This document shows positions 9,461 to 54,440 of a stretch of 64,000 nt of DNA, in pieces; the stretch's first letter is position 1; each line of letters begins with the position of its first letter. The position numbers were made by a program, and so were the translations under genes. The notes beneath the pieces are model-generated. The model saw only the letters and a list, made by a program, of their open reading frames with translations, was not told the origin of the DNA and ran no database searches. Where the stretch lies: assembly GCA_964016885.1 (NCBI GenBank), contig OZ024753.1:19840001-19904000 (forward strand), written 5' to 3'. The DNA comes from Eledone cirrhosa. Taxonomy: Eukaryota.

Positions 9461-10527
9461 TCCATACATACATAATATGTATAGTGTTTTCCTAAAATTA
9501 AAACTTTAAAGGATGTGACAGTCAGGCGTTCTGTGTGTTTTTAAATAAATAATTAACTCCGTTCATGCACCACGGGATACCACGTTGGTTGATTTGCATA
9601 ACGTCGAGTGCTTTCATTTTTTGCATAATGATTTACTAACTGAAATTTCTAGTTGTTATCCATATGTGTCTGTGTGTGTGTATACATATAACCTAATATT
9701 TTCAGTCAATACTGTCTGTACAGAGATCCTCCATTGACTTAATAAAAAGATCCAAAATACAAGGAAGATACATGTAAAGATGCCTCCCTGTGCTCATGTC
9801 ACCTCTAATTCCTACATGCCATTTTGATGTAATATTTGAAATCCTTTGGTTCGTGGAGCCAAACAACCTCTTGTTTTGTTTATTTTGTTCAATATATATT
9901 ATTACAATATTCACTGTCTCCTATAGATTGTGGAATTCAAAATAACATTTAAGTGTGTAAAACATGGTAAAATTGTTATATTATTTTCCGTGTAAAGCTA
10001 GACGTGGTATTTATATAGGACTCAATAAATGCCATCTTGTCATACTAATATTTTGATTGTAACTCTTACTGGTAATTCTCATCAAATTTCTTATTTAAAT
10101 TTCTATAAAAATGACGAATCATACTTCAACACGAAACTTACATATTTAAATTAAACTTTTACTGCAGCAAGAACATATATGTTATTTTTATATTTATTTA
10201 ATCATTTACTATTTTCTACGTTCAATAATTATTTCATATATATATTTCTGAAATACTTCATTTACTAAAAGAAAAATTATTTGGGTATGACAGAAATATC
10301 TTATGCACGCGAACGATCGTTTATATATATATACACAGATATTTATGTATATACACGCACAAGCACATAAACACAGCCACTCCCACCCACCCCACACACA
10401 CATATCTATATATATACATATATATATATATATATATATATATATATATATATATATATATATATATATATATATATATATATATACGATATTAAATAAA
10501 TGGAAACTATATTTATAAAACCATATT

Positions 10528-10592
10528 TATTTCATTATACATATTTCAGGGATACCAAATTAAAATATGGTATGCCTTCATCAGACAAAATA
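10528..10592 (-). ncRNA. Type I hammerhead ribozyme
   Basis: TATTTTGT CTGATGA AGG-C-ATACCA..TGGTAT-C-CCT GAAA TATGT ATA ATGAAATA. Confidence 0.75.
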
Positions 10593-11035
10593 CAATATAT
10601 AAACAGTTTTATAAATAATTTTGACGTACCCTATTAAATGCAACCATTATTTATGGAAGCTGTCTGGATAGTGAAATGTTTATATTATTTTATTAGTTAT
10701 AGTTTTAAGCACAATTAGAAAAAGACGGAGAGAAAGAAAAAACGGAGAGAGAGAAGGAGAGAGAAAGAAGGAGAGAGAGAAAAAGAAAACTCTTTCTTTT
10801 CTACATACATTTCTCTCTCTCTCCGATATTTCTCCAGGTTTTCTTTTTCTCTCTCTCCTTCTTTCTCTCTCCTTCTCTCTCTCCGTTTTTTCTTTCTCTC
10901 CGTCTTTTTCTAATTGTGCTTAACACTATAACTAATAAAATAATATAAACATTTCACTATCCAGACAGCTTCCATAAATAATGGTTGCATTTAATAGGGT
11001 ACGTCAAAATTATTTATAAAACTGTTTATATATTG

Positions 11036-11100
11036 TATTTTGTCTGATGAAGGCATACCATATTTTAATTTGGTATCCTTGAAATATGTATAATGAAATA
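11036..11100 (+). ncRNA. Type I hammerhead ribozyme (inverted copy)
   Basis: CTGATGA at 11044, GAAA at 11081, stem I TATTTTGT/ATGAAATA. Confidence 0.75.
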
Positions 11101-11547
11101 AATATGGTTTTATAAATATAGTTTCCATTTATTTGATATCGTATATCTACTCCAAAAACTTGTCGAGTGCTTTATATCAGTTATAAAATATTTACTTGTT
11201 GTATCCCAACAATTTTAAATAGAACTTTTGCATATTGTCTGATGAAGGCATACCATATATATATATGTATATATATATATATATATATATATATATATAT
11301 ATATATATAACAAAGGAATTGTGATAATGAACCAGATGGACCACAACGCACCAGAGTACTCAATACTTAGGGTAGTAGAGTAGGAAATAGGAAAAATTAT
11401 GACCCCGACAGCAGAGCTCAAGCCGTTTTAACGACTATTTCTGGACTGCTGTCGAAACGGCTTAAGCTCGGCCGTCAGGACATACTTTTTTCGTATATAT
11501 ATAAATAATATATATATATATATATATATATATATAAATATATATAT

Positions 11548-12690
11548 TGTTATACTTGGGGAGCGTCATATTTGTGTAATGTTGCCAGAATTAATAACAG
11601 AACACATTCACTGTTTGGTTGGTTTTCGCTTTTCGCTTCTGTGTCTTTTATATCGGTCCTCAATGTTGTCATTGACTTACCAACGGTCAACAATACAGAT
11701 ACAATATAGACACAAACACATATATATAGTTTATCAAAGTTCTTTCGTTGCGCATCTGCAACATCGTCAGTGGTGCTATTGTTTCCTCCCATTTTCTACG
11801 CCATCTTTATTTAGTCTGTTTATATATTTATTTATTTGTTTATTTTGTTTTGTCTTCTTTGCGCATGCGTTGGTGTGTGTGTATAGTGTTTTGTTTGATG
11901 TGTGTTCGTGATTGGGTGACTGTGTATTGGTTAATGTATTATATCTTTACTAGTGTGTGTTTATATGTGTTTGTTGTTATTGTGCTTGTGTATTTATTTA
12001 TTTATTTATTTATTTATACTTCTCTTAGGTCAGTATTGTTTGTGTGGGTGTTGTTGTTATTCCATTCATTCTTTCTGTTTAGCCTTGGTCTTCTTAGTTC
12101 TATTTCACCGGCCTCTCTGATTTGCCTATATGCTGGGTCATTTCTATGTTTAGATATTATTCTGATTTCTATGTTGTCTATGTTACCGTCGTGTTGTTGT
12201 CTGGCATGTTCGTATAGTGCTGAACCGTTTTTTCGTCCTTTTAATTCCCGCCAGTGTTGGTCTATCCTTTCACCTATGCCACGAGCTGTCTCACCTATGT
12301 ATGTTGTTGTCATGTTTCTGAAAGTACCCTCTGTACATCTTATGCTATAGAGTACGTTTCTAGTTTTACAGTTTATCCGGGGGTTTACCTTACATATGAT
12401 ACATTTCCTATTAGTACAGTGCGTTTTCGTAAAAGGGTAGGTTTTGCTGATCATGGATTTTATGGTGGTTCCTGGCTTTTCTACCACCTTAATCTTTAAG
12501 TGGGTCTTTCTCATGGCCTTTCTACACTGGTTAGCTGATTTCTCTCCAGGACATGACACTCTGGTATCTCTGTGAGTGTGTTCTGTTATTAATTCTGGCA
12601 ATATTACACAAATATGACCCTCCCCAAGTATAACAATATTTGTTTCGACACACGATTTCATATCAAAAACCTCGCAAAACTAATTCATCC
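11548..12690 (-). mobile_element. Penelope-like element (Neptune-type) 3' fragment: GIY-YIG, 3'UTR hammerhead, inverted terminal copy
   Basis: CTNRKCIIC...CKTRNVLYSIRC...YIGETARGIGERIDQH...SALYEH; 11548-11612 is inverted at 12573-12637. Confidence 0.85.
11733..11774 (-). ncRNA. Type I hammerhead, 3'UTR of Neptune-type element
   Basis: ACCA CTGACGA T GTTGC-AGATGC-GCAAC GAAAG AA CTT TGAT. Confidence 0.65.
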
Positions 12691-52183: not shown

Positions 52184-52220
52184 CTTTCTGATGAAGGACT
52201 AGTGTTCGAAACGTTAAAAG
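52184..52220 (+). ncRNA. Minimal Penelope-type hammerhead; degenerate relative at ~24850-24890 (-)
   Basis: TTT CTGATGA A GGAC-TAGT-GTTC GAAAC GTT AAA; relative has GGAC-TGGC-GTCC GAAAC. Confidence 0.65.
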
Positions 52221-52553
52221 ACACTCTCCCCCTATTTGAAGCGTTAAAACAAATATATTTCTTCCATGTACTGTGCCGTTTGTTTTTGTTATTATATGTG
52301 GGTGTCTGTATGTGTATGTGTGTGTGTGTGTGTGCGTGTATGTACATATATAAAGAGAACAGAACGTAACACAAAGAGAGGGGGAAACAGGAAAAGATAA
52401 ACAAGTATGTATAAAGACAGTTATATATATATATAACTTTGTCAACTTTGATAGGTGTATATATATATGTGTGTGTGTATGTATATATATATATGTATAT
52501 ATATATATATATATATATATATATATATATATATATATATATATATATATATA

Positions 52554-53192
52554 TATAAGGAATTTATATCTAGTAACATTTATATACACAGATGCATATC
52601 AATGCTAGCAAATATATAGGTTTTGTCTTATTAACAATGTGGTTCAATGCATGGGGTTGCAGAACAATAATATGCGAGACGTAAAATAAGAAAATTATAA
52701 AATTAACTTACTTACTAAAAAATCACTTCCAACTAATTAGTTTCTGGAATGGAGTATATATATTTTCCGAAGAAACATAAAGAAAATCATTCCGTCATCA
52801 GGAAAGTCTTGTTCCGTATAGGTCTCCAGGCATAGCGAGGACACTGGAAACTTATTAAAAAAATAATTCAGTGGAATGGAAAAAGCGAAGCGTGGACTGG
52901 ATTCCAAGCCATTGAGAAAATCACTGCCTCTACGTCTGTGGCAAATTCAAAAAGAATCAATCACGTGACATCGAGGTCAATCAGTGGAAAGCGAGTGGTT
53001 ATTAAGACAGCGGCCAGCTTACTACCATAGTAGCAGTCATGGCCAAATATTGCTCGACAAATGAATTGGGGATAATTATAAGGAATTTATATCTAGTAAC
53101 ATTTATATACACACAGATGCATATCAATGCTAGCAAATATATAGGTTTTGTCTTATTAACAATGTGGTTCAATGCATGGGGTTGCAGAACAA
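52554..53192 (-). mobile_element. Non-coding 523-bp monomer + partial tandem with hammerhead (52725-52807); homolog of 33614-34781
   Basis: 52554 repeats at 53077; ACTTTC CTGATGA C GGAATG..CATTCC A GAAAC TAATTA GTT GGAAGT. Confidence 0.85.
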
Positions 53193-53447
53193 TATATATG
53201 TGTGTGTATGTATATATATATGTATATATGTATATATACATATATATATGTATATATGTTTATATATGTATATATATATATATATATATACTTATGTATA
53301 TATATATATGCATGTATATATATGTATATATATATATATATATATATATATATATATATATATATATATATATATACATATATATATATATATATATATA
53401 TATATATATATATATATATATATATATATATATATATATATATATAT

Positions 53448-54440
53448 AAGTATGTACACGTACATACATATATGTATACAGACGTACAGTAGTATGTATA
53501 TATATATATACATATATGCACATATATATATATGTACGTATGGATTCACCGAACATTTATTATTATGCTCGGTGTGTTTGTAAACAAACATCCCGTATTA
53601 AGCCGTAGTATCTAGCAACCATCGTTGCTCGTTTGTTCAACACTGACAAAGGAACGCTGTGCTAGTTTCAAGCTCATTAGCTATCGTCAGCAACGTATAC
53701 CTTCCTGCCAGATTTTTGAACGTATATACTTACCTTATGCATATTAACGGCTGAGTAGCCCAATTTTCATATTGAGTGGGTTAATCGGCCGGGTGCACCG
53801 AAAACGATAAACGGAAAAAATGAAACGAAATTTCATTTTCCAGACTTAGTACGGCTGTTCCTTAAATATAAGTATGTACACGTACATACATATATGTATA
53901 CAGACGTACAGTAGTATGTATATATATATACATACATGCACAGATATATATATATATGTACGTATGGATTCACCGAACATTTATTATAATGTTCGGTGTG
54001 TTTGTAAACAAACATCCCGTATTAAGCCGTAGTGTCTAGCAACCATCGTTGCTCGTTTCTTCATCACTAGACACTACTATTAATATGCATAAGATAAGTA
54101 TATACGTTCAACAATCTGGCAGGAAGGTATACGTTGCTGACGATAGCTAATAAACTTGAAACTAGTTCAGCGTTCCTTTGTCAGTGTTGAACAAACGAGC
54201 AACGATGGTTGCTAGACACTACGGCTTAATACGGGATTTACAAAGACACCGAGCATTATAATAAATGTTCGGTGAATCCATATGTACATATATATATATA
54301 TGTGTGCATGTATGTATATATATATACATACTACTGTACGTCTGTATATATATATGTATGTACGTGTACATACTTATATTTAAGTAACAGCCGTACTAAG
54401 AGTGGGGAATGAAATTTCGTTTCATTTTTTTCCGTTTATA
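53448..54440. mobile_element. Non-coding 422-bp monomer + partial tandem + inverted copy, hammerheads 53654-53696 (-) and 54131-54173 (+)
   Basis: 53448 repeats at 53870; ACGTTG CTGACGA T AGCT-AATG-AGCT T GAAAC TA G(C/T)(A/T) CAGCGT. Confidence 0.85.

Follow-up and report, generated by a model that had tools for sequence, protein, structure and literature searches.

Metazoan non-LTR (long terminal repeat) retrozymes coexist with Penelope-like elements (PLEs), which are a strong candidate for their mobiliser (PMC7229834). Recently, Li, Clavereau and Pollet (2026, bioRxiv 10.64898/2026.07.22.740005) argued that animal retrozymes are non-autonomous PLE derivatives mobilised by the PLE machinery. 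PLE hammerhead ribozymes and retrozymes have already been published, and their partnership has been proposed (PMC4209133, PMC7229834, PMC8557442 and the 2026 preprint). The retrozyme mobiliser and the origin of the tandem or inverted, one-tailed insertions of PLEs are called open in PMC7229834, PMC8557442 and the preprint. Here we analysed a 64-kb window of the 3.0-Gb Eledone cirrhosa assembly (contig OZ024753.1, positions 19840001-19904000; 'the window' is this whole stretch), in which type-I hammerhead motifs occur both at the 3' ends of coding PLEs and in protein-less units. In our view these units are likely to be retrozymes mobilised in trans by Penelope-like reverse transcriptase (RT)-endonucleases (EN), probably via RNA circles.

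The window has a GC content of 35%, no N and abundant (TA)n tracts. Using descriptor scans and reading by eye, we found 33 type-I hammerhead candidates between 10.5 and 54.4 kb. Both core halves were present in 29 of them (including one at -18858 whose 3' half is damaged); 17 of these 29 keep all conserved core bases and 12 show copy-level damage or variants. The other four (+11239, +22032, ~+22400 and +36131) are half motifs or doubtful, the last one having no homologue among the loci compared. We took as type I a CUGANGA core (or U3:A8), GAAA, NUH and stems I-III in type-I order; the motifs show this arrangement, and where window copies are damaged the family majorities are canonical. A strict descriptor gave 12 matches in the window and 0-1 in 20 local dinucleotide shuffles, while a wider one gave 16, with 0-1 in 10 shuffles. 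The matches at +21218, -23064, -14212 and -35039 were discarded as chance or double counts. An Rfam E-value scan returned no hammerhead among the matches listed (150 of 190), only microsatellite-driven microRNA matches; these variants are therefore missed or poorly ranked by that library.

The surroundings of the motifs were also alike. A TA or TTA tract lies within 300 nt on the 3' side in 29 of the 33 cases and on the 5' side in 13, compared with 39% of random positions, some of these tracts being internal to the unit. Eight families (A, F, E, D, A2, G, K2 and H) form a minus copy followed by an inverted plus copy with a hammerhead in both arms. The first-pass annotation of this DNA had claimed more than 20 type-I hammerheads, 3' ends running into (TA)n and such inverted pairs, and our counts agree with it on all these points. 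It had also described most stems III as palindromic: the six palindromes it named do occur in real hammerheads, but the Neptune-type stems III (AGAACT, AGAGCT) are imperfect palindromes and that of family E is a 4-bp hairpin. The motifs in PLE 3' untranslated regions (UTRs) or pseudo-LTRs (pLTRs) include ATATATAT/ATATGTAT and ACAATTGT types; the ACAATTGT cases are truncated in the 5' half (+22400) or carry an extra core base (K2).

Regarding their carriers, 15 of the 33 motifs lie at 3' ends of coding PLEs (11 Hydra, 4 Neptune) and 15 in units of ~270-660 bp without an open reading frame (ORF); three (B3, B4 and +36131) were assigned to neither group. Repeats were mapped by masked self-BLAST, microsatellites being abundant. 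The protein-less features and two of the unassigned motifs are:

18698..19145, both strands: family F, non-coding head-to-head pair and diverged relative of G; cores at -18858 and +19000, both damaged, with C3:G8
23428..23607, both strands: family E, head-to-head, probably non-coding, ~490-bp unit; hammerheads at -23431-23479 (intact) and +23475-23522 (damaged)
23886..23943, plus strand: hammerhead B3, with a weak stem I and no homologue among the loci compared
24525..24584, minus strand: hammerhead B4, from a repeated family
28927..29382, minus strand: family J1, non-coding, 72% like J2; hammerhead at -29219-29299 with A9U
30567..31316, both strands: family J2, 657-bp non-coding unit (+30660-31316); hammerhead at +30951-31030 with A9U, hairpin at +30768-30783, left arm inverted and tail-only
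33612..34777, both strands: family D, 560-bp non-coding unit, 1.8 minus units plus an inverted arm; hammerheads at -33804-33885, -34364-34445 and +34633-34714, all with a private A14G; hairpins at -33702, -34143 and -34261
42646..43290, both strands: family G, 320-bp non-coding unit, head-to-head; hammerheads at -42808-42854 and +43115-43161 with a U3:A8 core
52064..52300, plus strand: family I, old non-coding monomer whose 5' start is fixed; minimal hammerhead at +52183-52220, stem III ACGT
52558..53191, minus strand: family D2, 523-bp relative of D; intact hammerhead at -52726-52806, hairpins at -52643 and -53168
53450..54436, both strands: family H, 424-bp non-coding unit, head-to-head; hammerheads at -53655-53695 (damaged) and +54132-54172 (intact)

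D (560 bp), D2 (523 bp), G (320 bp), H (424 bp) and J (657 bp) are tandem units that matched no PLE protein; their longest ATG frames measure 30-94 aa and their GC content is 0.33-0.38 over lengths of 320-657 bp. D, D2, G/F, H and J thus combine non-coding tandem units with one type-I hammerhead each, as non-LTR retrozymes do. Each of the D, D2, G, H and J queries gave at least 1,100-3,500 first-look candidates, the best copies being 93-99% identical, and G forms an array of ~28 units on contig C14. E (~490 bp) and I (~270 bp) are monomers with a fixed start, with single nearby repeats only in loci L183 and L293; we do not class them as retrozymes, and they would work like non-autonomous PLE partners. 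E is probably non-coding because six copies start at one point after unrelated DNA, among nine upstream stretches inspected from 25 loci; a sense Hydra EN stands directly upstream of E in 2 of 55 loci (L200 and L371), which we read as chance or chimera. The annotation had spoken of non-coding families throughout: this holds for D, D2, G/F, H and J, and the fixed starts of E and I fit it, but not for the 15 motifs at coding PLE ends. The annotation had also stated that it would be refuted if every family were just the pLTR of an annotated coding PLE; this is not the case, since several families proved to be non-coding. Two core variants were rejected as family traits: A9U was found in only 1 of 24 distinct copies of J, and A14G is common to the three D copies in the window and occurs at no other of the 30 D loci fetched, hence private to this locus. 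Besides, family I starts in other copies (window position 52064) with CAAGATGGCCG, which we take to resemble the YY1 site of internal promoters.

The units resemble the metazoan non-LTR retrozymes of PMC7229834 in being tandem, non-coding and low in GC, in having a single type-I hammerhead per unit and in their predicted self-paired circle. They differ from them in their size of up to 520-660 bp, in stem II regions of ~50 nt and in insertions that are anchored in (TA)n and mostly comprise 1-3 units arranged as head-to-head arms. D and J are longer than the 150-450 bp given in PMC7229834 and lie within the range of 51-972 bp in the 2026 preprint. The main text of PMC7229834 contains neither 'inverted' nor 'microsatellite'.

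The evidence that ties these units to PLEs comes from their ends. In each family the 3' ends fall at two fixed positions, for the most part within short TA-alternating runs of the unit. Unlike arm ends, one short and one long, were found in all 51 non-coding two-armed insertions (D 10/10, H 15/15, J 9/9, G 17/17; overlapping windows of one locus were removed for D, H and J, and ~8 of the 51 end at atypical positions). Coding PLEs gave the same pattern, with unlike ends in 19 of 22 two-armed loci (10/11 for the Hydra-clade family K, 9/11 for the Hydra-type family A). The non-coding families also show the partial tandems, inverted 5'-truncated arm, one-end tail and (TA)n target by which PLE insertions are recognised; in PMC8557442 the PLE tail is likewise at only one end. 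Since ends run into (TA)n, target-site duplications are unreadable there. Rare variants were shared by opposite arms at 1.3-3.3 per kb and by tandem units at 3.8-5.4 per kb, compared with 0.16-0.32 per kb between loci, that is, ~8 to 34 times the between-locus level, which suggests that the arms and tandem units of an insertion come from one source. The fixed ends are located 3' of the cut site, at a distance of ~20-390 nt, and copies are intact across this site. By logic, the template would then be circular or an uncut precursor.

A second link is a small hairpin, YTC-y-stem-rty-GAR. Four families (A, D, D2 and J) have it immediately past each of their two ends, and K has it past the long one. 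Further occurrences past an end were found in A2, B1, E, K2, an A0-like family and a 595-bp family outside the window, partly in families not used to define it (A2, B1, E, A0-like and one further). Strict matches numbered 16 in 1.2 million strand-bases and 4 in shuffles. We did not find it near the ends of G, H, I, B2 or the Neptune types. Because D, D2, J and E carry the hairpin of Hydra ends, they most likely use a Hydra enzyme. Family M (11310-11493, 23639-23716 and 29382-29572) is a separate observation: it is palindromic, TA-anchored and present at 21-25 high-scoring segment pairs per 400 kb, we saw no hammerhead in it, and it has the Hydra-type hairpin at 11359-11380, 11439-11456 and 23688-23709. 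It is possibly a ribozyme-less hitch-hiker.

The coding PLE ends in the window are the following:

10487..11255, both strands: family A, two 3' ends of a coding Hydra-clade PLE in head-to-head orientation; hammerheads at -10531-10589 and +11039-11097, short end at 10487 and long end at ~11232, end hairpin at +11150-11167, 5' half motif at +11239
11548..12690, minus strand: C1, 5'-truncated Neptune PLE; GIY-YIG EN at 12017-12559, hammerhead at -11732-11775, short inverted arm at 12572-12690
19731..21510, plus strand: B1, decayed Hydra PLE; RT/EN remnant at 19731-20509, hammerhead in the 3' UTR at +21309-21363
22032..22236, plus strand: degenerate Neptune-type 3' end, core GTGATGA, 80% like C2
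22400..22540, plus strand: 3' half hammerhead of Hydra type with a long stem II and stem III ACAATTGT, truncated in the core and ending in (TTA)n
26275..28904, plus strand: K, young Hydra-clade PLE, frameshifted RT then EN; hammerhead at +28742-28855, ending in (TA)10
30200..30488, plus strand: B2, Hydra PLE 3' end; hammerhead at +30388-30443
34865..35245, both strands: A2, head-to-head Hydra PLE 3' ends; hammerheads at -34907-34961 (intact) and +35053-35105 (G at the cut site)
39440..39855, plus strand: C2, Neptune-type 3' end; hammerhead at +39618-39661
43325..43760, minus strand: C3, Neptune-type 3' end; hammerhead at -43435-43479
44210..48314, both strands: K2, probable Hydra PLE; minus arm with EN remnant at 47367-47749 and 3' end at 44297-44863, inverted plus arm at 47748-48314; hammerheads with an extra core base at -44343-44433 and +48178-48268, hairpin at -44265-44286

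The RT-EN remnant at 26275-28249 is a member of a young family, of which four fetched loci (L249-L252) have open frames of 784-786 aa. These frames contain RWK, DKT, CxCx5C, CxxC and CxH motifs, no CCHH, and an RT that precedes a C-terminal GIY-YIG domain; according to PMC8557442, the motif set and the RT-before-EN order point to the Hydra clade and not to Naiad. On these sequence features K is a Hydra-clade PLE, and A, A2, B1, B2 and K2 are so in part; K was judged from the L249-L252 frames against the diagnostics of PMC8557442, and the assignment of the others is based on tblastn matches to these proteins. Other Hydra remnants lie at 1721-3219, 19731-20509 and 47367-47749. The Pfam GIY-YIG match was weak, below the cut-off, and the Pfam scan missed intact Hydra and Neptune proteins.

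The ENs of the window PLEs are followed by a stop codon and then by the hammerhead UTR. Family A is a graded 5'-truncation series, with 5 of 30 loci collinear over 1.5 kb; a Hydra EN was reached in all four loci that were extended, and L242 and L243 carry both RT and EN. Downstream of the EN and in sense, B1 recurs at 8 of 19 other EN-anchored loci; A2 stands behind its EN at 14 of 20 such loci, and 6 of 25 B2 loci are preceded by a sense Hydra EN. Homologues of the +22400 motif in L031 and L072 stand ~400-670 nt behind a Hydra EN. As an observation apart, this is a Hydra family that ends in (TTA)n and not in (TA)n. K has a stem II region of 85 nt. In K2, the EN remnant and the 3' end would form one element; K2, C2 and +22032 are probable PLE 3' ends. 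K2 is also peculiar in its eight-base core with one extra nucleotide (A6a-like), seen in four of four copies (44343-44433 and 48178-48268 in the window; L031 and L085). Regarding Neptune, the translation of 12017-12559 shows a C-terminal EN with a CX2-5CxxC linker and CCHH, as described for this clade; the window copy has no RT, so the choice between Neptune and Nematis is made on the linker alone. Of 20 copies of C3-like motifs, 10 are preceded by a Neptune EN, nine of them within 220-340 nt. The coding Neptune elements announced by the first-pass annotation are represented by a Neptune-type EN, but its Naiad elements are not: all the PLE remnants are of Hydra or Neptune type, and the two-domain remnants run from RT to EN, unlike Naiad, with its N-terminal EN, CCHH and no canonical hammerhead. 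No Naiad protein was among the queries, and a faint Naiad remnant could escape this search.

These elements agree with the Hydra clade of PMC8557442, Hydra-1_Obim included, in motif set, absence of CCHH, RT before EN and (TA)n targets, and also in the hammerhead in the pLTR, the inverted 5'-truncated arm and the one-sided tail; by eye, the L249 protein resembles Hydra-1_Obim. That clade comprises few families in PMC8557442, whereas this one window holds at least eight differing 3' ends. The tails here measure ~90-140 nt, compared with 30-40 in PMC8557442, and stem II regions reach ~100 nt. The motifs share with the minimal PLE hammerheads of PMC4209133 and PMC3088659 the palindromic helix III, the proposed dimers, an extra base after position 9, opposite-strand pairs 100-700 bp apart, the U3:A8 variant and the A6a insertion. 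Protein-less PLE partners with pLTRs and head-to-tail copies are known as well, in non-autonomous Chlamys elements such as MRC1 (PMC8557442).

We then examined the ribozyme core. In the G/F alignment (8 rows), 13 cells showed two-sided changes; the covarying pairs are the four of stem II and the one at 3:8 in the core, C3:G8 being replaced by U3:A8 in 4 of the 8 rows. In the alignment between D subfamilies (7 rows), all 91 stem cells are paired and nine have changed on both sides, while the stem II loop diverges. None of 500 shuffles reached the two-sided counts of G/F or D. The rows were hand-picked with a motif that already requires the core, and related sequences can beat shuffles, so this covariation supports catalysis and does not prove it. 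The alignments support selection on the hammerhead core, including the 3:8 pair, with catalysis as a putative activity. On this evidence the motifs are conserved hammerheads, which supports the annotation.

As monomers, the stem III hairpins are predicted to be unstable, at +0.4 to +6.0 kcal/mol; ACGT cannot form one, and E has -1.4 kcal/mol. The perfect palindromes, in contrast, would form self-duplexes of -1.7 to -19.5 kcal/mol. Five non-coding units are predicted to fold as circles with 54-68% of their bases paired (z of -2.5 to -7.7 against 12 shuffles each), whereas two coding UTRs folded as circles did no better than shuffles (z of +0.6 and -1.8).

The picture that we favour is one of a genome-wide (TA)n population made of Hydra and Neptune PLE 3' ends and of protein-less units of 270-660 bp with like ends. 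The hammerhead, which probably acts as a dimer held by its palindromic stem III, would cut tandem or pLTR read-through transcripts, and the cut RNA would be closed into circles. The enzyme would nick both strands of a (TA)n tract. Priming from each DNA 3' end would occur at either of two fixed, UA-rich positions located 3' of the cut, and the small hairpin just beyond such a position likely marks it in Hydra elements as well as in D, D2, J and E. The RT would cross the ribozyme junction, sometimes for more than one round, and two cDNAs joined at their truncated 5' ends would give head-to-head arms with one short and one long end. We tentatively extend this to a more specific proposal, in which the twin hairpin beyond two fixed UA sites may be a cis signal of the Hydra RT-endonuclease, kept or captured by unrelated retrozymes, one circle or dimer may be primed from both (TA)n strands, and the hammerhead count may be above any given in the papers cited here.

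Several points weigh against mobilisation in trans through circles. The loci are the best-scoring 20-30 of each search and not a random draw, and three coding two-armed loci break the end rule. Variant sharing could also reflect a homogenised tandem source or gene conversion. RNA editing would leave a strand excess of A>G, and D, H, J and G showed none (22 vs 19 shared variants, 82 vs 118 single ones, p ~0.27). The Neptune-type and K stems III have little predicted gain from dimers (+1.4 and -1.1), and 8 of 9 Xenopus dimers stayed uncleaved in vitro in the 2026 preprint. We first derived the hairpin pattern by visual inspection, in part from the sequences on which it was then scored; it is missing from the short end of K and from B2, and J has an extra match at +84, away from the end. 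Seven non-coding units compared with 14 coding UTR stretches showed no homology beyond microsatellite, so descent of the units from pLTRs is not supported. Finally, cleavage, dimers, circles, priming and mobilisation in trans are what we infer from these data.

One could argue that the same enzymes act with no circle at all, uncut transcripts of tandem arrays being reverse-transcribed linearly and the hammerhead being weak or an RNA trimmer. We regard this as rather unlikely, yet it accounts for copies that are intact across the cut site, for long source arrays such as the ~28 units of G, for monomers with a fixed 5' start (E and I) and for the poor in vitro cleavage of minimal PLE hammerheads (PMC4209133). 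It accounts less well for units that are predicted to fold as unusually self-paired circles, for the private variants common to both arms and for a core that appears to be under selection, including its 3:8 pair; besides, circles have been demonstrated for coral, mussel and axolotl retrozymes (PMC7229834).

A DNA route, either rolling-circle (Helitron-like) or by fold-back repair at TA tracts, with the likeness to PLE ends as a convergence on (TA)n, seems very improbable to us. Tracts of (TA)n are fragile and palindromic, the long G array probably grew by unequal exchange and the lack of an RNA-editing trace fits such a route, but fixed 3' ends with variable 5' truncation, long and short pairs as in coding PLEs and a common hairpin speak against it, and the covariation of the ribozyme implies selection at the RNA level. 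That all families are just 5'-truncated 3' UTRs or pLTRs of coding PLEs, with nothing non-autonomous, describes 15 of the 33 motifs (A, A2, B1, B2, K, K2, the +22400 family and C1-C3) and could draw on the two E loci behind a sense Hydra EN, but as a general account it is the least credible, being refuted for D, G, H and J, whose units are preceded by another ORF-less unit over at least one full period, and set against I and E, which start at a fixed point after unrelated DNA.

In order to place the window in its genome, we sampled 40 10-kb blocks at fixed positions on contigs C1-C10 (30 of them from C1 and C2) and obtained 49 matches, compared with 2.2 in shuffles; 20 neighbouring blocks gave 37, compared with 0.4. 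The spread sample extrapolates to ~351,000 motifs genome-wide (bootstrap 95% interval 223,000-491,000), with a descriptor that misses damaged copies. At 16 matches per 64 kb the window is about twice as dense as the spread average and is not an island, so the density is genome-wide and not that of a local ecosystem, as judged from the 40 blocks. First-look EN candidates numbered 60,350 genome-wide, which is not a copy number. Published counts run to thousands per genome (PMC4209133) and ~120,000 in axolotl (PMC7229834), compared with the extrapolated 220,000-490,000 here, obtained with a different descriptor.

The preprint of 2026 argues from co-occurrence and pLTR homology, mostly in vertebrates and with no mollusc in the text seen, whereas our evidence is the signature of insertion ends and the common hairpin, pLTR homology not having been found. 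We did not find this kind of evidence in the excerpts of published accounts of retrozymes or PLEs, nor, among the papers listed, any title or abstract opening describing two-armed retrozyme insertions. No paper joining hammerhead ribozymes with octopus genomes was found in a search that covered journals other than subscription ones, and the passages of the Octopus vulgaris repeat annotation (PMC13282606) contain none of the words 'hammerhead', 'ribozyme' and 'retrozyme'. To the extent that the literature could be searched, the families appear to be undescribed; they may be catalogued in Repbase or Dfam, which lay outside the search.

Further hammerheads were noticed outside 10.5-54.4 kb, at +540, -844 and +56845 (window 535-900 and 56840-56937), the one at -844 being downstream of the Hydra remnant at 1721-3219. 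Outside the window, additional hammerhead families have U3:A8 with ACTACGTAGT (595-bp spacing), U3:A8 with ACCGGT, or AGTACT (L061, L042, L036, L052, L067 and L071). The window also contains other repeats:

4262-4724, 56028-56207 and 63369-63683: a 41-bp minisatellite, (GAA)60 and a 15-bp minisatellite
4724-4829, 12690-12976, 17040-17220, 22540-22914, 33036-33210 and 36446-36632: a ~180-bp repeat like a short interspersed nuclear element, with at least eight copies and one inverted pair
37451-39435 and 40556-42540: a 2-kb inverted duplicate, 98-99% alike, of a decayed long interspersed nuclear element (LINE) 80% like 6369-8202; the copies face inward around the C2 3' end and are a recent duplication or an assembly artefact
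57525-60923, minus strand: an open frame of 1132 aa with RVT_1, flanked by (TTA)n/(ATT)n, presumably a Dong/R4-type LINE

The young open Hydra frames, the young protein-less partners, the fixed ends and the candidate hairpin allow a trans-mobilisation assay to be designed directly. Our results imply that a large share of the (TA)n-anchored unclassified repeats of such genomes may be hammerhead-bearing PLE material missed by Rfam and Pfam. If true, the proposed partnership would show how Penelope-like enzymes choose and copy RNA.

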